A stretch of DNA of 64,000 nt. It comes from Cetorhinus maximus. Its lineage: Eukaryota. Under the pieces are notes generated by a model. It did not search any database. It worked only from the letters and a program-made list of their open reading frames with translations, and was not told the DNA's origin. Position 1 is the first letter of the stretch. The number at the start of each line of letters is the position of its first letter. The stretch spans positions 18,538,001 to 18,602,000 of the forward strand of contig NC_135910.1 in assembly GCF_964194155.1 (NCBI RefSeq), given 5' to 3'. Position numbers and translations under genes: made by a program. Positions 9,066-62,048 of this stretch are shown piece after piece.

Positions 9066-9411
9066 GTCACGGAAACTGGCAAACAAGCAAACGTAAATTG
9101 TAGAGGCCACTCCAAAAAGCAACGAAGGAAGCGATCTCGTCCAGAACCCCTATTTATCCCAACTCCAGCATCAAATCAAACTGGGGTGCTGCCAGGGATG
9201 GTGCTGTACCAGAGCCATATGCGTTCCCCCGTTTGCTTAGCTGATCATCTTCTAGAGAAAAATTTTCAACCTCCGCCATACACGCCTCCACCGATGTTAA
9301 GTCCCATCCGTCATGGCTCAGGGCTTTACTTTAACAGGATCTGTTCTTTGCCAGGGAGCAAGGGACCGCACAATACATACGCTCCTAAAGGAATCCTGGG
9401 CAGCGTTATAG
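9066..9411 (+). CDS. ZNF541: ZNF541-like exon (RPEPLFIP, LYQSHMRSP, PYTPPPMLSPIRHGSGLYF)
   Basis: Family-conserved motifs; tgtag acceptor, G|gtaaac donor; phase 0 to 1. Confidence 0.9.
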
Positions 9412-11315
9412 GTAAACTGTTTTTTAATGCTTTACTAATATTTGTCTTTACAACATTTTTGCTGCTATGTAGTACTTAAGATTTTTGTGTAAAATTAATC
9501 TATACAATTTTAATGCAGTTGTTAATTCATTTAAAATGAGTGAAGATCATGTTAAAAGGTTTAACGACCAAATTAAAATAAGGCATAACGGATTATTTGA
9601 ATATGTAAAGCAGTATCCCGTTAAAGGAAGTTAAATCGTTGGGTGGTTGTTACCGAAGTCTCACCAGATAATCTGTAAAACCATTTAGAAAAAAACAGTA
9701 GTTCAAAATAATGTCCATGCACATTTACGCTTTTTAAAGTGTATTTTAGAAATGTCTGAGATATCAGTATTGAGGAATAGAACGCTTCCATTTTAGGTAA
9801 CCACTGTCAGATTTAAGCATTTCAGGTTAAATTTGGCACAGGTTAAATACAGGGTATAGTGCCCTCTATGTTACCTCACAATTCCTATTGTAGTATCCTA
9901 ATATCCTAACGTAAAACTGTCACAGGTCAACATTAAATTGGCTGTTTCACTCCAAGAGGCTACATGATGGCTGATGTGGGAAATTTATTAGTATTGCGTT
10001 GGTGACAGTTGGGGGGCATCTAATGCGATCAAGGCTAAGGCACTTTTGGGGCAAGATGGAGAGAATTTTACTTTGCATCCATTAAATCTGACCTCCAGGA
10101 GCTTGATTCTGATGCAGGGTGGCTAAAGTGGAAATATGTACCATTCACCAGTGCTAATATCCATCAACCGAAGAAAACAAGTCATGGAGACTATGTGGAG
10201 CTTCTATTAATAGCGAGTGGGACCTGGATGTGGAAGTCCAGCCCCCACTTCCTTCATGAAATTTTTGCGGTAGGGGAAAGGGGGCGGGGCAGGCTTCACG
10301 CATGAGGGAAACTCGATCTCAGCAGGGCCACTTGAGCTCAGTGCTGAGTTCAAAGCACCCCATTTTTGCTGCTGCAAAGGACTTAACTTGCAGTGTGGGA
10401 TTCACATATTTATGGAGTAGATGTAAAGGCTCTTGATGGAGAAGATCTGTATGATGTAAAGTTATTAAGGTGTCAGTGAGAGTTAAATAAAAAACTGTTC
10501 TAGCAGTTTCACGAGTCAATGTTGACATTTCCCTAAGGGATCTTTATAAATGCTTGGTTAACTTCCAAAAGCTACAATTATCTCAACAGGGGATTCTGAG
10601 CTCACAGTTAGATTGGCAGATAAAGAGGCTATTAAAGGATTAGCTGTCTTTGATGTGGGGTATGAATAGAAGTTTGTTTTTAGAAGAGATTAAGCACTTA
10701 ACTTGAAAAAAAATGTTCGGGCTATTATGTATGGGATTTTTAAAATTTCAAGTGTGTATAGTGAAATCTATATTAGATTTTCAGAGCTTCATTTAATCTC
10801 CACATGGCTCCTGAGGTCTGCCCAGAATGGATACTGGGTGAGTTGACTTAAGTTGGTATGGGGTATAAGGAGCCTTGGGGGTTGTGTAGGGGGCATGTTG
10901 GCATGGGGGTATAATGAGTCTTTGAGGGGGGTGGGGGGCGATGCTAGAAGGCCTAAAATATTATAACACAACCGGGACATCCAAGTACCAGAAAACTCAG
11001 GCAAACTTTCAAACCAACCAGCCTTGGCATTTGCCTGTTCCTGTGGCCACCTATTCTCTATCTGGGATCAGTGGCCTGACTCTATCGCACATCTGTCCCC
11101 TGAGTGAAGATTGTGACATTCGGGGGCCTTTTTTCTTGGTTGGTGGGGCAAGCTGGGAAATTTCCCAACTCAAGCTATCTGCCTCTGTAGCAAAAATTCA
11201 GGCCCATAACTTGAGACACATTGTGAATATCAGGAACGAGTGTGCACTGGCCTGATATATTTTTTGTGTTGGACTAAGTTTTGTTTTATTCTTTATAAAA
11301 TTCTGTCCTTTCCAG

Positions 11316-11804: not shown

Positions 11805-12965
11805 TTAAATGAAAACAAAAATACCTGGAAAAACTCAGCAGGTCTGGCAGCATCTGTGGAGAGGAGCACAGTTAACGTTTCGAGTCCGCATGACTCTGCA
11901 ACAGAACTAAGGAAAAATAGAAAAGGGGTGAAATATAAGCTGGTTTGGGGCGGGGGGGGCGGTGGGACAAGAAGAGCTGGATAGAGGGCCAGTGAAAAGT
12001 GGAGGTAACCAAAAGATGTCACAGACAAAAGGACAAAGAGGTGTTGAAGGTGGTGATATTATCTAAAGGAATGTGCTTATTAAGGGTAGAAAGCAGGACG
12101 AGCAAGGTACAGATAGCCCTAGTGGGGGTGGGGTGGGGTGAAGGAATCGAAAAAGGCTAAAAGGTAGAGATAAAACAATGGATGGAAATACATTTAAAAA
12201 TAATGGAAATAGGTGGGAAAAGAAAAATCTACATAAATTATTGGAAAAAATAAAAAGGGGGGAAAATTGGAAAGGGGGTGAGGATGGAGCAAAAGGGTTC
12301 ATGATCTAAAATTGTTGAACTCAATATTCAGTCCGGAAGGCTGTAAAGTGCCTAGTCGGAAGATGAGGTGCTGTTCCTCCAGTTTGCGTTGAGCTTCACT
12401 GGAACATTGCAGCAGGCCAAGGACGGACATGTGGGCATGAGAGCAGGGTGGAGTGTTGAAATAGCAAGCGACAGGGAGGTCTGGGTAATGCTTGCGGACA
12501 GACCGAAGGTGTTCTGCAAAGCGGTCACCCAGTCTGCATTTGGTGTCTCCAATGTGGAAGAAACCGCATTGGGAGCAACGAATGCAGTAGACTAAGTTGA
12601 GGGAAGTGCAAGTGGAATGCTGCTTCACTTGAAATGAGTGTTTGGGCCCTTGGACGGTGAGGAGAGGGGAAGTGAAGGGGCAGGTGTTGTATCTTCTGCG
12701 GTTGCATGGGAAGGTGCCGTGGGAGGGGGTTGAGGTGTAGGGGGTGATGGAGGAGTAGACCTGGGTGTCACGGAGGGAACGATCTCTACGGAATGCCGCT
12801 GGGGGGGTGAAGGGAAGATGTGTTTGGTGGTGGCATCATGCTGGAGTTGGCGGAAATGGCAGAGGATGATCCTTTGAATGCGGAGGCTGGTGGGGTGATA
12901 AGTGAGGACAAGGGGGACCCTATCATGTTTCTGGGAGGGAGAAGGAGGTGTGAGGGCGGATGCAT
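11805..12965 (-). mobile_element. Penelope-like retroelement 3' part with GIY-YIG endonuclease
   Basis: ORF 12299..12628: NLVYCIRCSQCG..HIGDT..RL.DRFAEH...GLNIEF; terminal repeat with hammerhead-like motif at about 11868-11910. Confidence 0.88.
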
Positions 12966-13289
12966 GATGTAGTTTAAAAATTAGAGCCAGACCTTTCAGG
13001 AGTGAAGTTAGGAAATGCTTCTACAGACAGAGTAGTTAAAGTTTGGCATTCTCTTCTGCAAATGGCAACTGATGCTGGATCAGTTGTTAATTTTAAATCT
13101 GGCATTGTAAGATTTTTGTTAACCAAAGGTATTAAGGGATAAAGGGCAAAACCGATTATATGAAGACAGTATGCAGACCAGCCGTGATCTCATTGAATAG
13201 CAGAACTGGCTTGAGGGGCCAAATGGCCTTCTCCTGTTCCTAGAACAGTTAGGTAGCTTGCAAGTCCATTTCAGAGGGTCAACCACAAT

Positions 13290-22735: not shown

Positions 22736-23205
22736 TTTGGTAATGTATGGCAGGCATCACGAAATGAATGAACCCGGAGACCATACACTTTTTTTTTATC
22801 AGGCAGGGTGAGTGGGACAGCTTACTTCTGTCCATTCCTTAAGGCAATCTTTGTCTCATTTCTAAGGGTGATATAGTTTGGTACTAATGTCATTAATAAT
22901 ACCCAATCTGTTACAATGATGATATATATGTATGCCATAAATAAACAGCTAAAAATGAAAAGATGACTTTCAGAAAATTACATGAATAACAGAGGTTAGT
23001 CAGCATCTGAACGAGACTCTTAATTGAACACTTCCTCAGAATGATGAAGAATCTTACTAAAATTTAATGACTTCTTGCCTTTCATATGCCAACTGGCTTG
23101 TAGTGTAGTTCCAGAACTTTCTGTCCCCTTTCCAGACTTTGGACATTAGCAGTTTTTCATTTTATCTACATTTTGAATTCTTCAATATGTATCTTTTGAA
23201 TTTAG

Positions 23206-23294
23206 GTACTGAGAAGTGGACTACTGCAGAGAAAAAGATGTTCAATAAAGCAATTTGCTTTCACAACAAGGATTTCTTTCTCATGCAGAAGATG
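23206..23294 (+). CDS. ZNF541: ZNF541-like exon, SANT domain (EKWTTAEKKMFNKAICFHNKDFFLMQKM)
   Basis: SANT signature; tttag acceptor, ATG|gtaaga donor. Confidence 0.92.
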
Positions 23295-24946
23295 GTAAGA
23301 GATAATCAAATAGCAAAGCCAGTGTATAAAAGGCAGTTAAATGCACAATTCTTCAACATGTCAAAATTGACTCTATATACAATATTGAATTTTTTGGGAG
23401 CAATTCCCACCTTCACTGTGGGCAGTAAACTGACAGAGCAGGGTACCTGTCTGTTGTGGAAGCCGCCCATTTTACTTTCCCCACACTGTCAACCTCCTAG
23501 TTTCCTAGGTTACACTGCTATCTTAATCTCAGTTCCTACTGAAAATTAGAGTCCTGTCCAAAGAAATTTCGATCTTTACAGTTCATAAATGGAGAGGGAG
23601 CTTTCATCCTATTGATCTTAATGAAACTCCAGGTCTCAGAAGAGAGAATCCCATTCTCACTGCATTCCATCGCATTGCCCAGCTCCTGGAAACATTTATC
23701 AGCCGGCACAAACACTGACACCTTATTACTGGTGTGTGATCTATTTATTGTTATATCGCACCATGGAATTGTAAGAGTTTAATGGCAGATGACGCAGTTA
23801 AAACAGCATATTTTGGTTAGCAGCCTGAAGTGGTATCATTGTAAAGTGCAATATTATTCTACCTATAAATGTTTTAAACCATACACCTGGGACACCCTTG
23901 GAAAAACAATCACATTATAGTTTAATCAAGTAATTCGGGCATTATAAAGTTCTATTTCTACAATTTTGGATTGTTGGTTCACTGTTAGAATTCCCTGCAG
24001 TACTCCAGTTTGCTGCTACCACCCAGTGATAAAAGAAAAAGACTGCTGCTGTTAGGATTTTAACTGAAACTGCAAGATGACCTTTAGCCAGTCAACATCC
24101 AAATAATTACTTCACATTTGTGGAACTTGGGTTTGAGTCCAATGCACAGAATGAAAGTGTCTGCACGAAAAACATTTGGATGAAGAAAGCCTTTCAGCTC
24201 ATCCTTCTAACACAAACACCTTCCTATTCCAAGATGTAACTATTCCTTAAATAAATCTTTCCTCCTGGTCTACTAGCTTGAATGAAACGAGTTGGGGACA
24301 GTCCCAGTCCCCTTCCTGTGAGCTCACAGCATACAGTACTATTTTCCACAAAGAGACCATTGCAAGGGCTGATGTCAGTGGAACTATTAGAGGCTGCTGT
24401 TTTTACAACAGAGATAGCTTAATTCTACATCTAAAGGTTTAAAACTGGGAATTTCTAGTTGGGACAGACTCACAGTGAATATCAGGACAGAATGGCTGGT
24501 GAATGTAGGACAGATAAGCCATTGAGGCACCATTACAGAATATTGTTCTTAAAAATTGTGTAATGAAAAGCCACCAGGCCAGAAATCAGACTGTCCAGTT
24601 TAAAATCCTGTATGTGTCCACGCTAATGATACCAGGAAGTGCAAGAACATCCCGCAACCTACTGAACTCAAAACATGTTTCTTTAAAGAGTAAAATATAG
24701 GAATGATTTAAAATTGAATAGGAGGCGGCGGCAGACTTGCTATAGATTATAGGGCTGATTTTACAAATTACTGCTACCATTGGGAACCACACACTCTGTA
24801 CATATTGAGAAATCGCAGGAGTTTTGGATCCAAAATATTGCACAAGTGCATTGCCCCAGGTGAGACTCCCCACTATTAGCACACACTTGGAAAATCATTC
24901 CTGATAGAAAAGGATTATTGCATTCATGGGACCTGCTGTTTTACAG

Positions 24947-48754: not shown

Positions 48755-50754
48755 TCACTGTCTGTATCTCTTTAGTGATTCGATATAATCAAAGTTTTTG
48801 TGCAAGAACAGGATCTGGTCGATGTCGTCTGGTAGCAGAGCTGATCTGGTCTGGTCTGGAATGTTACTGGAACAGAAGAAAGCTGTGGCGGCGGAGACAG
48901 AGGTGGCGGGAATGGCCAGGTACTGTTTGGCCAGGCTGGCCACAGCGGGGAAGCGATGCTCATTGTTTCTCCACCACTCGAAGGGGTTGGTGTTGCGTTT
49001 ACGCAGGGGCTCGGCAAGGTAACTCTCCAGCTGCTGGTGAATCTCTGGCATCCGTTCAGTGGGATCTTCACCGAACAGGAGGTCGTACTCGCATTGGCTG
49101 GGCTTGTGGCTGCCCTTGCGATCTCGGTGCTTGCTGCCTAGCTCGTGTACCGTGGCGTTGTGCTCGTCTGAGGAGGAGCTGGAGGAGTGGGACTGGGGAC
49201 TGGGCACGGCACTGGACAGCATGTTCTTCACCTTGTTGTGGACCTTGTCCCGTGTGTCGGCGCTCAGGAAGCGAAGGTCCTTGAATCGAGGGTCTAAAAA
49301 GGATGCCACTATTGCGGGACTCTCCATCATCTCATCATCGTCAGGGAGGTGCCAGCGTTTGGCAATCTCTGACCTGATCTTTGCACTCACTGTTCTGACG
49401 ATACAGCCTTGGTCACTGTGGTGATGCATGAGGGCTGTTATCACTCCATGGAGACAGGGGACCAAGGAGGACACGGAGGCATTTTGCTCTTCACTTAAGA
49501 AAGATGAGGCCACTTTAAGAGTCTTGAGGATGGGCAGTAGATCCTGCAGAAGTTTCCACTGGTGATCAGACAGGTTTGGAACAGTCAGGTGCCCAGTTCG
49601 ATCCTCTTCCAGCACCATGCTCACTGTCCAACGCAACTCCAGCAGTCTCTCGCACATGTCCAAGGTGCTGCTCCAGTGAGTAGCAGCGTCCATGACCAGC
49701 GTCAGCCGCTCTTTGTTCATCTCTGCCAGCTTGGCATTGAGCTCGGCATTTGCCCGGGTGCTGTGAATGAAGTGGTTGACGACGCGGCGAGCGACGCTCA
49801 GCGTGTGCTGCACCTGCTCCACCTGCAGCCCCAGCCTGATGCACAGCTGCAGCATGCGGCCGGCGCAGCACAGACTGGACCAGCCAAACTGCTCCTGCAG
49901 CAGGCGCGAGCTGCTCAGCAGGCTGCCCGCACTGTCGTGCACCACGCAGCTCACCGCCTTGCTGGAGATGCCAAACTCGCCGATGACCGAGAAGAGCAGC
50001 TCACCGATATAATCCGGTGCTGGGTTGTACTGGGGGGTGGTCTTGAGTACGCAGCGCGCCAGGCGCCAGCGACAGTCAATGAAATGCCCCACGATGGTGA
50101 GGTAGGTCTGTTTGCCCTGTGAAGTCCAGGTATCAGTGGAGAGAGTCAGAGATGGGACCGAGTGTAGATAGTGCTCCAACTGTAACTTGGCAAGGGTGAA
50201 TTTGTGTCTCAGGCTAGTGGCTAAAAGTGTGCTTGAGGGTATTTTATAACTCGAGTCCAGAAAGCCAAGCAGCCTCCTAAAGCCCTCGTTGTTGATGAGA
50301 GAGAGGGGCTGAAGGTCTCGGAAAACCATTCCCAGGATCAGGTCGCTGATCACCTCCTCTCTTTTCTCCGAGCAGGGCCTGACGTCGTGCAGGACAAGTT
50401 CGGAGATGCTCACTGGCTTGTTCTTCTTCACTTCAGGCTCCTGCCCCATGGACTCAGAGGACGAGGAGCCCTCGTCCTGGGACTGGCGAAGATCGAGCTC
50501 ACTCAGGTTGTGTTTGCGTCTCAGGTGCTCGCGGAGGCTGGTCATGCTGTTGTGGTAGCACAGCTGCTTCCGGCAGAGACTGCACTCCACACAGCGCTCG
50601 TTCAGCTTCTTGAAGAATTCCCAGGTTTGGGTCTTTTCTTGGCAGCTCACGGGTGAGGCTCGATTGAAGTTCAGCTCGCCTCCCTTCCTCCTCCTGGACC
50701 CCGCACTCCCCTCCCTGGCCAAGTGGTAAGATCGCAGCACCATGGAGAGCTCGT
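48755..50754 (-). CDS. ZBED-type hAT-transposase-derived protein, main exon: BED finger, RNase H-like core, hAT dimerization domain
   Basis: ORF 48755..50791; motifs WEFF..CSLC..HLRRKH, STDTWTS, FLDPRFK, PFEWW..FPAVASLAKQYLAIPATS; gtgcag acceptor, phase 1. Confidence 0.92.
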
Positions 50755-51825
50755 CTGCACATGAACACACAAAAACATTCAGGACAGCCAAACGTCCAGT
50801 TCACAGAATCAGAACATAACACAGAATGTGCGGCACAGAAACAGGCCATTCAGCCCAACAGATCTGTGCTGTTCATGGTACAAGCCTCCTCCCTCTTATC
50901 TTTATCTCACTTTATCTACATATCCTTCTGTTTCTTTCTCCCTCATGTATTTATCCATCTTCGCCTTAAATGTATCTATACTGCTCCCTGTGGGAGTGAG
51001 TTCCACATTCTCCCCACTCTCTGGATAAAGACGTTTCTCCTGAATGCCCCATTGGATTTATTAGTGACTGTCTTAGATTGATGACCCCGAGTTCTGGTCT
51101 TCCCCGCCCCCGACAAGTGGGAACATTTTCTGTACACCTACTGATCAAATCCTTTCATGATATTAAAGACCCCAAGAGGTTGCCCCTCAGCCTTCTCTTT
51201 TCCAGAGAAAAGAGCCCTCATCTTGTTCAGCATTTCCAGAATGAAAGAGCACACATACAAACATATTAATTAGGAGCAGGAGTAGGCCACAACATGTCAC
51301 ACAGCAATACCATTCAGCCCATTGTGCCTCTGCCAGCTCCTTGAAAGAGCTATCCAATTAATCCCACTCTCCTGCTCTCTCTACATTGTCCTGTAGATAT
51401 TTCCCCTTCAGATATTTATCCAAATCTCTTTTGAAAGTTATTATGAAGTTTACTTCCACCAGTCTCTCACGCACTGCATTCCAGATCAGCACAGTAATAT
51501 TGTGGAACTGACTGCAAATGATCAGAGAGATCTGGTGACTTCAGTCCTGTACCATTTGCCATGCTCCCCACTTTGCAAATCCTCAGCAGCTTCTGCCCAA
51601 GTCAGTCTGAGCCTTCGTCCAGCCTGGTTATACAATAACGACTGCACTGGGATTTGCTGCTGTTCCCTCTCCTCCTCTCACAGATCCCCCAGCTTCCTGA
51701 CAACCGCCTGTCCTATTTAAAACATCTGCTCTTTCTTTAGTTTCCTATCTCCATTCAGAAGCGCAGACCCTTCCTCATTATCCTGACACCAACACCTGCA
51801 AACTTAATAATAGCAGATCACTGAC

Positions 51826-52290
51826 CAGTGGGTATGGACACCAGGCAGTGGGGTTCAGGCAGTGGGGTTCAGGCACTGGGCACCACTCACATTCCCTCTC
51901 ACCCTCTCTCCATCCTCCCTAGTGTAGTACTGGGCAGCACGGTATGGGCACTGGGTTACAAGCACCAGGCAGTGATGGCACTGGGCAGTGGGGTACAGGC
52001 ACCGGGCAGTGGGGTACAGGCACCGGGCAGTGGTGACACCAGGCAGTAGGGTACAGGCAACGGGCAGTGGTGGCACTGGGCAGTGGGGTACAAGCAGTGG
52101 GGTACAGGCACCAGGCAGTGGGGTACAGGCATCGGGCAGTGGTGGCACCGGGGCACAGGCACCAGGGTACAGGCACCGGACAGTGGGGTACAGGCACCGG
52201 ACAGTGGGGTACAGGCACCGGACAGTGGTGGCATCGGGCAGCGGGGTACAGGCACCGGACAGTGGGGTACAGGCACGGGGCAGTGGGGTT
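51826..52290. repeat. About 21-bp G-rich minisatellite in a ZBED intron
   Basis: GGGCAGTGGGGTACAGGCACC variants. Confidence 0.9.
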
Positions 52291-52361
52291 GAATTTACTG
52301 ACAGAGTTAGTGAGCACTGGCTAAATTTAAACTAACATTCCACCCTAGGCTGTGACTGTAC

Positions 52362-52497
52362 CTTCAGCTAATGCAGTACAGGATTCACTAACTCCAGCAA
52401 AGGGGTTGATTTCCTGGTCCTCGTCAGCCTCTAATCGAGCTGCACACTCTCGCAGCATATCCGATATCCTCTTACTGCTGTATGTCGTGAAGGTTAC
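52362..52497 (-). CDS. ZBED-type gene, middle exon (VTFTTYSSKRISDMLRECAARLEADEDQE...)
   Basis: Pyrimidine tract plus aag acceptor, G|gtacag donor; phase 0 to 1 links the two BED exons in frame. Confidence 0.65.
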
Positions 52498-52878
52498 CTT
52501 GACGGAATAAAGGAACAACATTAATAGTTTCTTCAAAGCCTGCCCTGCGATGGGAAGAAATTGGCTACAGAATCTACACATTCTCATCTCAGTGTTTGAC
52601 TGAAACGGGGAGGGGGAAGTTGTGGGGAGGTGGGGTTGTGAGGAGAGAGGGTGTGGGTGTGGACAGGGAGATTCGGGGGTGGGAGGTGGGGCGCATTGTA
52701 ACTTTATTATTTGTTAAGCTACACAGACCAAAGGGTCACAGATTCAACGCCCATCCCGAGCTCGCTGAACTGAGTCAGAAACCAGCGGAGCTGCTACTCG
52801 CAATCTGCGGCAGGAGAGGAGGAGAAACCAGTCTCACAATTTCATGTTCGGATATTGAAGTTGGGAACAATAACTCAC

Positions 52879-53148
52879 AGGACTATCTATCCCAAGAAGC
52901 TGTGTGATTTTTGGAGTTCTGGCCTTGCTGGCCAGGATGCGAGGGATTCGCTCAGCTCTGCTGTTTCCCTGCAGCTTATTGTGGTCAACAGCCTCCTCTG
53001 TAAAGTGGATGCGATGATTCCTCTCCAGGTGTAGCCGGAGGACAGTGGCACTGCCCGAAGTGACCAGCTCCTTGCTGCAGATGTTGCACACGGTGGTTTT
53101 CTCATCTCTCCTGGTTACATATTTCCAGATGTCACTGGCACGGGGCAT
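52879..53148 (-). CDS. ZBED-type gene, first coding exon with N-terminal BED finger (MPRASDIWKYV...CNIC...HLERNH)
   Basis: BED consensus W..CxxC..HxxxH; exon acceptor tttcag at 53187, in-frame stop upstream of ATG 53148, CCT|gtgagt donor. Confidence 0.75.
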
Positions 53149-53289
53149 CTCGCTACAGACCGGACTCCTCACCAGCACTGGTCAGACTGAAATAAAACAG
53201 GGACACTTGTGACACCTCCTCCTTGCAAACACCTGCTCTCCATCTTACCTTCATCAACTCCATCGCTCACTCCCGCACCTCCCATCACA

Positions 53290-54460
53290 TTCCCCTCTCA
53301 CACTCCCTCCATCCACCCTCACACTCCCTCCATCCTCCCTCCCACACTCCCTCCATCCTCCCTCCCACACTCCCTCCATCCTCCCTCCCACACTCCCTCC
53401 ATCCTCCCTCACACTTCCTCCATCCTCCCTCCCACACTCCCTCCATCCTCCCTCCCACACTCCCTCCATCCTCCCTCCCACACTCCATCCATCCTCCCTC
53501 CCACACTCCCTCCATCCTCCCTCCCACACTCCCTCCATCCTCCCTCCCACACTCCCTCCATCCTCCCTCCCACACTCCCTCCATCCACCCTCCCACACTC
53601 CCTCCATCCTCCCTCCCACACTCCCTCCATCCTCCCTCTCACACTCCCTCCATCCTCCCTCCCACACTCCCTCCATCCTCCCTCCCACACTCCATCCTCC
53701 CTCTCACACTCCCTCCATCCTCCCTCCCACACTCCATCCATCCTCCCTCCCACATTCCCTCCATCCTCCCTCCCACACTCCCTCCATCCTCCCTCCCACA
53801 CTCCCTCCATCCTCCCTCCCACACTCCCTCCATCCTCCCTCCCACACTCCATCCATCCTCCCTCCCACACTCCATCCATCCTCCCTCCCACACTCCCTCC
53901 ATCCTCCCTCTCACACTCCCTCCATCCTCCCTCCCACACTCCCTCCATCCTCCCTCCCACACTCCATCCATCCTCCCTCCCACACTCCCTCCATCCTCCC
54001 TCTCACACTCCCTCCATCCTCCCTCTCACACTCCCTCCATCCTCCCTCCCACACTCCCTCCATCCTCCCTCCCACACTCCATCCTCCCTCTCACACTCCC
54101 TCCATCCTCCCTCCCACACTCCATCCATCCTCCCTCCCACATTCCCTCCATCCTCCCTCCCACACTCCCTCCATCCTCCCTCCCACACTCCCTCCATCCT
54201 CCCTCCCACACTCCCTCCATCCTCCCTCCCACACTCCATCCATCCTCCCTCCCACACTCCATCCATCCTCCCTCCCACACTCCCTCCATCCTCCCTCTCA
54301 CACTCCCTCCATCCTCCCTCCCACACTCCCTCCATCCTCCCTCCCACACTCCATCCATCCTCCCTCCCACACTCCCTCCATCCTCCCTCTCACACTCCCT
54401 CCATCCTCCCTCTCACACTCCCTCCATCCTCCCTCCCACACTCCCTCCATCCTTCCTCCA
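53290..54460. repeat. 23-bp C/T-rich minisatellite
   Basis: CTCCCTCCCACACTCCCTCCATC; includes a higher-order duplicated block. Confidence 0.95.
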
Positions 54461-54472
54461 TTCCATTCTCAC

Positions 54473-54560
54473 CCTCCCTCTCTCTCTCACATTCTCTCCA
54501 TCCTTTTGTTGCCACGGAAACGAACCGGAAGCGCTTCCGGTAGAGACCCGGAAGTCGCCG
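54473..54560 (-). promoter_or_regulatory. Putative promoter and non-coding first exon of the ZBED-type gene: palindromic double ETS site ACCGGAAGCGCTTCCGGT, third CCGGAAGT, X-box-like GTTGCCACGGAAAC
   Basis: Only unique CpG-rich island between two repeat arrays; candidate gtgaga donors at 54490 and 54472. Confidence 0.6.
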
Positions 54561-54574
54561 AAAGACAGAGAAAA

Positions 54575-55800
54575 AACCCCCACCCCCAGAGAGAGAGAGA
54601 GAGAGAGAGACCCCCACCCCCAGGGACAGAGAGAGAGAGACCCCCACCCCCCAGGGACAGAGAGAGAGAGACCCCCACCCCCCAGGGACAGAGAGAGAGG
54701 GAGAGACCCCCACCCCCAGGGACAGAGAGAGAGACCCCACCCCCAGGGACAGAGAGAGAGACCCCACCCCCAGGGACAGAGAGAGAGACCCCACCCCCAG
54801 GGACAGAGAGAGAGACCCCACCCCCCAGGGACTGAGAGAGAGGGAGAGACCCCCACCCCCAGGGACAGAGAGAGAGAGAGACCCCACCCCCAGGGACAGA
54901 GAGAGAGAGAGATCCCCACCCCCAGGGACAGAGAGAGAGAGAGACCCCACCCCCAGAGAGAGAGACCCCACCCCCAGGGACAGAGAGAGAGAGAGACCCC
55001 ACCCCCAGAGAGAGAGACCCCACCCCCAGGGACAGAGAGAGAGAGAGAGACCCCACCCCCAGAGAGAGAGACCCCACCCCCAGAGAGAGAGACCCCCAGG
55101 GACAGAGAGAGAGAGACCCTCACCCACTGGGACAGAGAGAGAGAGAGAGACCCCACCCCCAGGGACAGAGAGAGAGACCCCACCCCCCAGGGACTGAGAG
55201 AGAGGGAGAGATCCCCACCCCCAGGGACAGAGAGAGAGAGAGACCCCACCCCCAGGGACAGAGAGAGAGAGAGAGACCCCCACCCCCAGGGACAGAGAGA
55301 GAGAGAGACCCCACCCCCAGGGACAGAGAGAGAGACCCCACCCCCAGAGAGAGAGACCCCCAGGGACTGAGAGAGAGGGAGAGACCCCCACCCCCAGGGA
55401 CAGAGAGAGAGAGAGACCCCACCCCCAGAGAGAGAGACCCCCAGGGATTGAGAGAGAGGGAGAGACCCCCACCCCCAGGGACAGAGAGAGAGAGAGACCC
55501 CACCCCCAGGGACAGAGAGAGAGAGAGATCCCCACCCCCAGGGACAGAGAGAGAGAGAGACCCCACCCCCAGAGAGAGAGACCCCACCCCCAGGGACAGA
55601 GAGAGAGAGAGACCCCACCCCCAGAGAGAGAGACCCCCAGGGACAGAGAGAGAGAGACCCTCACCCACTGGGACAGAGAGAGAGAGAGAGATCCCACCCC
55701 CTGGGACAGAGAGAGAGAGAGACCCCCAGCCCCAGGGACAGAAAGAGAGAGAGAGAGAGACCCCCACCCCCAGGGACAGAAAGAGAGAGAACCCCGCCCC
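54575..55800. repeat. (GA)n-CCCCACCCCCAGGGACA compound minisatellite
   Basis: Seen directly. Confidence 0.95.
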
Positions 55801-55804
55801 CAGG

Positions 55805-56870
55805 TTTATGAAAGTTGGGTTTATTTATTAGTTTATTAAAGTTGGATTTATTTATTAGAGTTGGGTTTATTTATTAAGGTTTATTGGAGTTGGGTTTATT
55901 TATTGTTTATTAGAGTTGGGTTTATTTATTAGAGTTGGGTTTATTTATTAAGGTTTATTAGAGTTGGGTTTACTTATTAAGGTTTATTGGAGTTGGGTTT
56001 ACTTATTAATGTTTATTAGAGTTGGGTTTATTTATTAGACTTGGGTTTATTTATTAAGGTTTATTAGAATTGGGTTTATTTATTAGAGTTGGGTTTATTT
56101 ATTAAGGTTTATTAGAGTTAGGTTATTTATTAGAGTTGGGTTTATTTATTGTTTATTAGAGTTGGGTTTATTTATTGTTTAATAGAGTTGGATTTATTTA
56201 TTAGAGTTGGGTTTATTTATTAAGGTTTATTGGAGTTGGGTTTATTTATTAGAGTTGGGTTTATTTATTAAGGTTTATTAGAGTTGGGTTATTTATTAGA
56301 GTTGGGTTTATTTATTAAGGTTTATTAGAGTTGGGTTTATTTATTAAGGTTCATTAGAGTTGGGTTTATTTATTGGACTTGGGTTTATTTATTAAGGTTT
56401 ATTAGAGTTGGGTTTATTTATTAAGGTTCATTAGAGTTGGGTTTATTTATTGGAGTTGGGTTTATTTATTAGAGTTGGGTTTATTTATTAAGGTTCATTA
56501 GAGTTGGTTTTATTTATTGGAGTTGGGTTTATTTATTAAGGTTTATTAGAGTTGGTTTTATTTATTGGAGTTGGGTTTATTTATTAAGGTTTATTAGAAT
56601 TGGGTTTATTTATTAAGGTTTATTGGAGTTGGGTTTATTTATTAAGGTTTACTAAGGCTCGGTTTATTTATTGGAGTTCGGTTTATTTATTAAGGTTTAT
56701 TAGAGTTGGATTTATTGATTAAGGTTTATTAAAGTTGGATTTATTGATTAAGGTTTATTAGAGTTGGGTTTATTTATTAAGGTTGGGTTTATTTATTAGA
56801 GTTGGATTTATTGATTAAGGTTTATTAGAGTTGGATTTATTGATTAAGGTTTATTAAAGTTGGAATTATT
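55805..56870. repeat. AT-rich minisatellite GAGTTGGGTTTATTTATTA(AGGTTTATTA)
   Basis: Seen directly. Confidence 0.95.
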
Positions 56871-57725
56871 GGGGTCGGGTTGATTTATTGGGGTCGGGTT
56901 GATTTATTGGGGTTTATTGGGGTCGGGTTTATTTATTGGGGTCGGGTTGATTTATTGGGGTTTATTGGGGTCGGGTTGATTTATTGGGGTTTATTGGGGT
57001 CGGGGTGATTTATTGGGGTCGGGTTGATTTATTGGGGTTTATTGGGGTCGGGGTGATTTATTGGGGTCGGGTTGATTTATTGGGGTTTATTGGGGTCGGG
57101 TTTATTTATTGGGGTCGGGTTGATTTATTGGGGTTTATTGGGGTCGGGTTGATGTATTAGGGTTTATTGGGGTTGATTTATTGGGGTCGGGTTGATTTAT
57201 TGGGGTTTATTGGGGTCGGGTTGATGTATTAGGGTTTATTGGGGTTGATTTATTGGGGTCGGGTTGATTTATTGGGGTTTATTGGGGTCGGGGTGATTTA
57301 TTGGGGTTTATTGGGGTCGGGTTGATGTATTAGGGTTTATTGGGGATGATTTATTGGGGTCGGGTTGATGTATTGGGGTTTATTGGGGTCGGGTTGATGT
57401 ATTAGGGTTTATTGGGGTTGATTTATTGGGGTCGGGTTGATTTATTGGGGTTTATTGGGGTCGGGTTGATTTATTGGGGTTTATTGGGGTCGGGTTGATG
57501 TATTAGGGTTTATTGGGGTTGATTTATTGGGGTCGGGTTTATTTATTGGGGTTTATTGGGGTCGGGTTGATGTATTAGGGTTTATTGGGGTTTATTGGGG
57601 TCGGGTTGATGTATTAGGGTTTATTGGGGTTGATTTATTGGGGTCGGGTTGATTTATTGGGGTTTATTGGGGTCGGGTTGATGTATTAGGGTTTATTGGG
57701 GTTGATTTATTGGGGTCGGGTTGAT
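56870..57725. repeat. GGGGTCGGGTTGATTTATT(GGGGTTTATT) minisatellite
   Basis: Seen directly. Confidence 0.95.
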
Positions 57726-57856
57726 TTCTCTCTCGCTGACTCCCAGCTCCCGGGATCATTTCGAGTTCTCGCTCCGCCCCGGCCGCCGTCCGCCGCTCCC
57801 ATGGCAACGCGGCCTAGATCCGCTCCCCAAGCCTGAATCGAGTGCCGGCTCCGCGG
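57725..57856 (+). promoter_or_regulatory. MRPS12: Putative MRPS12 promoter and non-coding exon 1
   Basis: CpG-rich, GC box, X-box-like GCTCCCATGGCAAC, strong donor CGG|gtgagt at 57856/57857. Confidence 0.6.
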
Positions 57857-58024
57857 GTGAGTTTCTGCCGAATTTCGGCCCCGGCGGGGCTGCGATCACC
57901 CACAGGGAGGAGGGTAGGCCCCGAGCCACGGGCTCCATTATTCGGTCCATATCCTCCCTCCCCACGGTTTCCGGACCCCAGGCTCCTTCCTCGCCCTGTG
58001 CTGCTCCCACCTGGGGCCGGGAAT

Positions 58025-61194: not shown

Positions 61195-61550
61195 ATATTC
61201 ATTCATGAGATTTCAATGTTGCTGGCTAGGCCAGCATTTGTTGCCCATCCCTAATTGCCCGTGAGAAGGTGGTGGTGAGCTGCCTTCTTGAACCGCTGCA
61301 GTCCATGTGGTGTAGGTGCTGTTAGGGAGGGAGTTGTAGGATTTTGACCCAGAGACGGTGAAGGAACGGCGATATATTTCCAAGTCAGGATGGTGTGTGG
61401 CTTGGAGAAGAACTTCCAGGTGGTGGTGTTCCCATGTGTCTTTGTCCTTCTAGATGGTAGTGGTTGTGGGTTTGGGAAAGTGCTGTCGAAGGAGGCTTGG
61501 TGAATTCCTGCAGTTTATCTTGTAGATGGTGCACACACTGCTGCTACTGT
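61195..61550 (-). mobile_element. LINE 3' fragment, same family as 42112-42865
   Basis: Reverse complement of the same 3' region and tail. Confidence 0.8.
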
Positions 61551-61611
61551 TTCTCTGCTGTAGTTACAATATTATTTGTTCTCATTAAAGAAATTGTTAA
61601 TGTTCCTTTAG

Positions 61612-62048
61612 GAGCCACGAGACTGATCAGCTCCTCGCCAGCTTCCCATCTCCAGCGAGCTTTCCCGTCCGGGGTCACGCTGCCTCCCTCCGTTTGCCAG
61701 CAGAGCAGCCGCACCATGGCCACCCTCCACCAGATGCACAAGATGGGCAAGCCTAAGCGGCCGCCCCCCAGGGTGGGCCCCACCTTCAGCCGGCCCCAGC
61801 TGAAAGGGGTGGTGCTGAAGACCATGATCCGCAAACCCAAGAAGCCCAACTCAGCCAACCGCAAGTGTGCCCGCGTCCGGCTGAGCAACGGCAAGGAGGT
61901 GATCGTCTTCATCCCCGGAGAGGGCCACAATCTCCAGGAGCACAACATCGTGCTGGTGGAGGGGGGCCGCACGCAAGACCTCCCGGGCGTCAAGCTAAAA
62001 GTCGTGCGCGGGAAGTACGACTGTGCTCACGTTCAAAAGAAAAAGTAA
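61612..62048 (+). CDS. MRPS12: Mitochondrial ribosomal protein uS12m, main exon
   Basis: [41 protein letters not shown] motifs; ctttag acceptor; ATTAAA signals near 62082 and 62094. Confidence 0.97.

Follow-up and report, generated by a model that had tools for sequence, protein, structure and literature searches.

A domesticated hAT transposase gene with two BED fingers in Cetorhinus maximus, and the likely repeated gain of extra fingers in its family

The three-exon gene and its surroundings

The stretch of DNA analysed here (the window) comprises 64,000 nucleotides of the shark Cetorhinus maximus (NCBI RefSeq assembly GCF_964194155.1, contig NC_135910.1, positions 18,538,001 to 18,602,000 of the forward strand). 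Its minus strand carries a real, ancient and undescribed gene of the ZBED type, derived from a hAT transposase and divided into three coding exons. An earlier note, made from the sequence alone, had taken this to be a domesticated transposase gene with two BED zinc fingers; its structure is right and the reading as a host gene holds. Favoured with moderate confidence is a single-copy gene that lacks the catalytic glutamate, encodes a likely self-associating, sequence-specific regulator of transcription or chromatin, and probably received its first finger (BED1) in the cartilaginous-fish lineage, by splicing, from the 5' end of a related hAT element. More surprising than the shark gene itself is its family, where one and the same gene seems to have acquired a second finger on several occasions (likely, not proven).

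The coding exons (Table 1) have AG/GT ends, join in phases 0 and 1, and together encode 801 amino acids followed by a single terminal stop. The in-phase splicing proposed in the earlier note agrees with the shark and ray gene models on which it rests: in all seven compared, the alignment runs through both junctions, interrupted by no more than a single gap and a single inserted residue, and 768 residues of the white-shark RefSeq protein are identical to the 801. The proposed layout of a BED finger, a second BED finger, a hAT core and a dimerisation domain, of which the last two are characteristic of ZBED genes, is likewise recovered. Pfam places zf-BED in exon 1 (E 1.1e-8) and exon 3 (E 3.2e-6), both above its cut-off and both fitting the ZBED signature Cx2CxnHx3-5[H/C], and detects the hAT dimerisation domain (E 6.9e-16). 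The AlphaFold model of the white-shark orthologue matches the Hermes transposase in Foldseek (E 8.5e-16); with a mean predicted local distance difference test score of 73, both fingers and the core are predicted to be ordered and the linkers disordered. Several shark and ray models begin eight codons further upstream (window 53172-53148, minus strand), where the window has GTG; this upstream start is lost in the window and in the white-shark model. SUMO-consensus motifs are absent from the window protein and present in bird, turtle, snake and coelacanth N-termini.

Some observations weigh against this structure. Contigs X1, X2, X3 and X5 retain introns and X6 does not reach the exons, which is uninformative on splicing either way; exon structures in other species are gene models; and four chondrichthyan species out of 19 (Scyliorhinus, Mustelus, Hypanus and Mobula birostris) have models that lack BED1. 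They could mean that exon 1, which is joined to exon 2 in gene models, is minor or unspliced and that the real protein has one finger and starts at the ATG of exon 2 or exon 3. This is very improbable, as the BED1 segment is present in the models of the other 15 species (degenerate in chimaera), its frame and donor are conserved, and its codons differ from those of a second species by three synonymous and no non-synonymous changes. The models from Scyliorhinus (P0002) and Mustelus (P0071) are both carcharhiniform and may reflect a lineage loss or an annotation gap.

Domestication is supported by copy number, purifying selection and the family clade described below. A genome search with exon 1 (15 candidates scored) gave a single match, and one with the core returned itself and three paralogues at 23-28% identity. 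No terminal inverted repeats (TIRs) with an 8-bp target site duplication (TSD), which the earlier note had not found either, bracket the gene at 10-12 nt and up to one mismatch; at two mismatches four matches appear, none forming a credible element. Selection, for which the earlier note had proposed a substitution test, is visible against the second species: exons 1-2 differ by six synonymous and five non-synonymous changes (92.3 and 312.7 sites; ratio about 0.25), exon 3 by 39 changes among those listed (30 synonymous, 9 non-synonymous), and all insertions and deletions lie within intron 1. The gene is thus single-copy and immobile with orthologues under constraint, as in ZBED genes, and shows neither the full DDE triad with CxxH and RW nor the TIRs, 8-bp TSD and dispersed copies of an active hAT transposon.

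Residues D343 and D409 are kept, while the position of Hermes E572 is A758, the CxxH histidine is replaced by R435, and the RW motif reads HW (H495 at the arginine). Among 46 orthologues the E572 column holds glutamate in 10 and the first aspartate column aspartate in 11, and 55 other positions are invariant. Continued activity of the protein as a transposase or nuclease is barely credible: its open reading frame (ORF) is intact, its fold Hermes-like and both aspartates in place, and coelacanth and caecilian orthologues keep the complete motif set, but the three replacements in Cetorhinus maximus, the single copy and the lack of TIRs and TSD speak against activity. Those two orthologues (P0012, coelacanth; P0009, caecilian), which unlike the shark protein carry both aspartates, the glutamate, CxxH and RW, may retain catalytic potential. 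Elsewhere in the genome, two intact single-frame BED-hAT ORFs of 687 and 698 amino acids (L003, G000:C6:72995322-72999239; L004, G000:C30:18024418-18028305) are candidates for other undescribed domesticated genes. Open frames of 527 and 739 amino acids with a hAT dimerisation match (L047, G000:C10:1213184-1216417; G000:C9:73118603-73118767) are possibly further hAT-derived genes.

Table 1. Features of the hAT-derived gene and its neighbourhood (window positions)
Feature	Position	Strand	Description
Exon 1	52879..53186	-	coding 53148-52879, 270 nt; acceptor AG before 53186; ATG 53148; BED1 and disordered linker
Exon 1 donor	52879 end	-	GTGAGT, phase 0; exon seen only in chondrichthyan orthologues
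BED1 finger	53011..53136	-	W-x12-C-x2-C-x15-H-x4-H; Val and Leu at base-reading positions of Hermes (N67, R70)
Exon 2	52362..52497	-	136 nt; short predicted helix and acidic stretch; phase-1 donor
Exon 2 homology	52362..52497	-	counterpart is first coding exon of coelacanth and tetrapod orthologues
In-frame ATG in exon 2	52458	-	start of BED1-less models
Exon 3	48755..50754	-	2000 nt; domesticated hAT transposase ORF; in-frame ATG 50743; stop 48757-48755
BED2 finger	50507..50626	-	the gene's own, most conserved finger
hAT C-terminal dimerisation domain	48794..49030	-	Trp-Trp pair W729, W730
Putative promoter and non-coding first exon	54490..54575	-	86 bp, 8 CpG
CCGGAAG motifs	54525, 54534, 54548	in 86-bp element	3 of the window's 9
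Candidate donors of putative non-coding first exon	54490, 54472	-	inferred
23-bp tandem array	53258..54459	.	52.7 copies, within inferred first intron
MRPS12 neighbour	61461..62048	+	frame with ribosomal S12 coding exon; head to head

Upstream of the coding exons, a non-coding first exon is likely, because exon 1 has its own acceptor. The CpG-rich promoter-like island of the earlier note shrinks to the 86-bp element of Table 1, wedged between simple repeats; its three CCGGAAG motifs are presumably of the ETS type, and a half site at 54508 is taken to be RFX-like. A larger CpG-rich stretch (57700-58000; observed/expected 0.92) faces the 5' side of MRPS12. About 3.1 kb with three different simple-repeat arrays (54580-57727) lie between the head-to-head promoter-like elements of the two genes. 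On the other side, convergent with the hAT-derived gene, is an ELM2-SANT gene of the MIDEAS/TRERF1/ZNF541 family (exons 231-551, 9066-9479 and 23109-23549 on the plus strand and L018:8362-8727; SANT match E 3e-7), which we take to be ZNF541. In the ESM Atlas this left neighbour gave no usable match and the hAT-derived protein only generic BED clusters, and no tool could name a further gene in the flanking stretches L011-L020. A decayed fragment at 12299-13020 (minus strand) has no Pfam match and presumably belongs to a Penelope-type GIY-YIG element.

Family, orthology and the ancestry of exon 2

Family searches of a protein collection, each scoring about 7,990 candidates that shared most words, gathered 125 representatives, 115 of them named. 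The named ones belong to cartilaginous fish (chimaera, sharks and rays), to ray-finned fish (bichir, paddlefish, gar, eels, bonytongues, otophysans, salmonids, pikes and smelts) and to coelacanth, amphibians, reptiles and birds; for the 10 without a name, the closest proteins are those of birds, frogs, lizards or catfish. None of the 115 is from a mammal, a spiny-rayed fish or a jawless fish, which bears out, for a protein collection rather than for genomes, the suggestion of the earlier note that the gene may be absent from mammals. The supplement to PMC10416458, in the available part, has a row for LOC100486384, a BED gene of Xenopus that has orthologues in opossum and devil; it could not be tied to the shark gene, so the family may or may not be present in marsupials.

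In databases the gene is labelled zbed4l2 or si:dkeyp-117b8.4, or carries a transferred ZBED1 or ZBED4 name; the shark gene is an orthologue of this labelled, undescribed gene. No published description was found under either label, most subscription journals lying outside the search. The sole paper found for six family accessions uses the zebrafish protein, in the portion available, merely as a comparator (PMC9859435), and neither broader literature searches nor the accessible text of PMC10027918 contained a description. In a tree of the core region, 29 family rows form one clade (Shimodaira-Hasegawa-like approximate likelihood ratio test, SH-aLRT, 100) against 24 other hAT proteins; the tree was built without ZBED4, ZBED6 and ZBEDX sequences, and the order within the clade is for the most part that of the species, although Denticeps and gar are misplaced. 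The nearest outgroup is a transposase, P0240 (SH-aLRT 86). The earlier note had held that clear orthology to an already characterised ZBED gene of the same structure would undo its interpretation. The shark gene is not the orthologue of human ZBED1: that place belongs to the paralogue L005, which is 23% identical in the core, falls outside the family clade and matches PDB 2ct5 at E 1e-34, against E 0.095 for the two-finger protein. The gene carries the database label given above. Its neighbourhood, MRPS12 and the ELM2-SANT gene, is known in this genome only.

Exon 2 gave no match in Pfam or PDB searches. A proposed likeness of its helix to Sin3-interaction helices was dropped, as there was no PDB match and the tetrapod copies did not fit. 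Its relatives were found within the family: it aligns with the N-terminal stretch of the orthologues in coelacanth and tetrapods (hhalign 76.7%, E 2e-5), a stretch that ends at the motif opening exon 3, and it scores 9.3 bits against the tetrapod N-terminus, a value reached by 1 of 1000 shuffles, where the four teleost upstream pieces reach at most 1.7 bits. By sequence comparison, exon 2 is ancestral and homologous to the first coding exon of tetrapods, and the BED1 exon alone is chondrichthyan-specific. The ancestral gene likely consisted of exon 2 and exon 3, because exon 2 is homologous to the coelacanth and tetrapod N-terminus. Of the exon shuffling by which the earlier note had tentatively explained the second BED module, the part that stands is that BED1 occupies its own exon; the "linker" exon 2 is ancestral and did not arrive with it.

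BED2 is 81-95% identical across chondrichthyans and about 50% identical to that of bony vertebrates; in chimaera, identity is 37% for BED1 vs 81% for BED2. A pattern scan found no upstream finger in the models of lobe-finned vertebrates, bichir, paddlefish, gar, eel, bonytongue, characin, catfish or smelt. Upstream fingers of other kinds, without exon 2, occur in cypriniforms, in a second gene copy of suckers, in salmonids with pikes, and in Denticeps. For Mobula, Danio, Myxocyprinus, Coregonus and Esox the annotation includes isoforms with one finger and isoforms with two. A 974-amino-acid two-finger protein, with an N-terminus identical to the zebrafish model, is encoded on a 4-kb Logan contig that may be a transcript.

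Origin of the extra BED fingers

The upstream fingers fall into four spacing classes; each is well conserved within its group, and scores between groups are at background level. The background consists of 838 BED1-like fingers, with the Denticeps finger included in it and not scored as a group. Against the BED1 profile the cypriniform, sucker and salmonid fingers reach 23, 14 and 17 bits, values reached by 258, 566 and 485 of the background fingers. Two of the four teleost upstream fingers clearly resemble other hAT classes: the sucker piece gives a 115-column alignment (E 7e-13) with an unrelated hAT ORF, extending as far as its first helix, and the salmonid extra finger pairs with another hAT class (54% identity; 95/89). 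To that same class belongs a five-finger hAT-derived ORF in Paramormyrops (P0183); Engraulis has a two-finger protein without a transposase core (P0236). Repeated independent gain of extra fingers is, on this comparison, likely but not proven.

A single older origin is the improbable alternative: the two-finger form would be ancestral to jawed vertebrates, lobe-finned and many ray-finned lineages would have lost the upstream finger, and in those teleosts that still have it the finger would have diverged. BED1 does evolve faster than BED2, as the chimaera values indicate, and approximately unbiased (AU) tests on 43 columns, from which the degenerate chimaera finger was left out as a long branch, reject neither a single origin of all upstream fingers (p 0.33) nor the union of shark and cypriniform fingers (p 0.75), for which the constrained tree beat the free quick tree. 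However, such an origin has to accommodate the four spacing classes, the background-level cross-scores despite good conservation inside each group, the resemblance of the sucker and salmonid pieces to other hAT classes, the lack of exon 2 in the teleost pieces, and many parallel losses.

For the shark finger, the best background match to BED1 is P0240, an intact-looking transposase that starts with Met-Pro-Arg just before its finger, like exon 1. The BED1 profile also gives BED2 40-41 bits, a score exceeded by only 7-8 of the 838 background fingers (above 99%). Both facts are compatible with a second insertion from the hAT lineage of the founder, since BED2 scores high yet the top match is P0240, the family's nearest outgroup. 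The main rival is that BED1 is an internal duplicate of the gene's own finger, later diverged on its own exon, with host gene and function unchanged. The high BED2 score serves this account as well, and so does the 12/15/4 spacing shared by BED1 and BED2, which fits duplication equally; the AU test does not reject a grouping of BED1 with BED2 (p 0.62), and duplication is the published mode for ZBED4 and ZBED6 in the available passages of PMC3606216 and PMC2780926. Nevertheless, 12/15/4 is also the spacing of 87 of the 838 background fingers, several foreign fingers outscore BED2, the flanks carry no duplication signal, and the ancestral exon 2 sits between the two fingers. A narrower proposal, in which exons 1-2 would be a copy of the N-terminal part of the same gene as far as the first helix, was rejected, as the post-finger parts reach only 2.6% in hhalign and no background protein matches below E 0.67; exon 2 then proved to be ancestral. 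Internal duplication is therefore held to be unlikely, although the trees reject neither origin.

Capture of BED1 from a second hAT element remains preferred, with the shared spacing and the three AU results counting against it. To these are added the stretch after BED1, which matches no transposase among the background proteins (none below E 0.67), and the fish without an upstream finger, which may reflect missing annotation. In the BED trees, 34 of 75 inner branches are open.

Proposed function and relation to known systems

The favoured history may be put as follows. A hAT transposase was fixed before the split of sharks and bony vertebrates, with exon 3 likely behind a short exon 2. Within the family the cutting residues are unconstrained, while BED2, the core fold and the tryptophan pair of the dimerisation domain have been kept. 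The protein would then oligomerise through its hATC domain and read DNA with BED2, like ZBED1 and ZBED6. At the level of gene models, chondrichthyans have a BED exon in front of exon 2, and four teleost groups have BED exons of other kinds in front of exon 3, in many cases confined to an optional isoform. These would be independent gains that lengthen or alter the target site. Shark BED1 would not simply repeat the BED2 site but add a different contact, either with DNA or with protein.

Oligomerisation would pass through W729-W730. In the available text of PMC7471704 the corresponding hATC tryptophan pair of ZBED1 is required for self-association, nuclear accumulation and DNA binding, and sequence-specific DNA binding and gene regulation by the shark protein would follow the published cases of ZBED1 and ZBED6. 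For the fingers the guide is Hermes, whose BED domains engage DNA as cooperative pairs and recognise bases through N67 and R70, as the accessible portion of PMC10368747 describes; this cooperativity offers a rationale for a second finger on the shark protein. Both base-reading positions are hydrophobic in 11 of 13 chondrichthyan BED1 fingers vs 30 of 836 background fingers. With valine and leucine there, BED1 would therefore make a contact different from that of BED2, either to DNA or to a partner protein.

A bolder idea, offered tentatively, is that the gene is a platform for swapping fingers. The acceptor before the transposase exon would have taken BED exons from different invading hATs at least five times (cartilaginous fish, cypriniforms, the sucker duplicate, salmonids with pikes, and Denticeps), with optional two-finger isoforms re-aiming a dead transposase, possibly at the transposon ends of the donor family. 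Since zebrafish carries one-finger and two-finger isoforms, what a captured finger does to the choice of targets is directly testable. The gene itself represents an undescribed domestication whose age matches that of the jawed vertebrates and which was not found in mammals.

Among known genes, the passages available of PMC3606216 place ZBED1-6, ZBEDX and C7ORF29 at other loci, in a family counted from human and frog genes. ZBED1 (hDREF) shares with the shark gene a BED finger, a hAT core and the hATC tryptophan pair (PMC7471704, as available) and is represented in the shark by its own locus, L005. From it databases transfer the name "E3 SUMO-protein ligase ZBED1-like" to the shark gene; the SUMO-ligase activity is a transferred label. 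ZBED4 has four BED fingers, lies beside ALG12 and occurs in mammals, whereas the shark family has one or two fingers, the neighbours MRPS12 and ELM2-SANT, and no mammal among its named representatives. ZBED6 and ZBEDX come closer, each with two BED fingers, a transposase core and a hATC domain in single copy, in the parts available of PMC2780926 and PMC3606216. By those descriptions ZBED6 is intronless, placental-only and situated within ZC3H11A, with an extra finger that is an internal duplicate, and ZBEDX lies upstream of LRRC61. In the shark gene the fingers are on separate exons with an ancestral exon between them. The descriptions argue against identity with ZBEDX, which has two fingers in frog: the locus differs, and the frog orthologues of the shark gene have one finger.

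Hermes shares the fold (PDB 4d1q, 8edg) but is active and gathers its fingers via an octamer (PMC10368747, in part), whereas the shark protein lacks E572 and the CxxH histidine and has two fingers per chain. Host-transposase fusions, as far as the accessible text of bioRxiv 10.1101/2020.05.07.082677 goes, likewise capture transposase exons through alternative splicing, with fused and unfused isoforms coexisting; that survey concerns tetrapods and the joining of host domains such as KRAB. No recognised host domain is joined in the shark gene, as exon 2 matches nothing in Pfam or PDB and exon 1 is itself transposase-like. Here a transposase finger appears to have been spliced onto another transposase that had been domesticated before, and this one gene has apparently undergone such an addition several times. 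The extra BED fingers of ZBED genes are explained in the available part of PMC3606216 as internal duplicates, with no evidence of recombination; the fish orthologues suggest a second route to multi-finger ZBEDs, namely repeated capture of fingers from other hATs by splicing.

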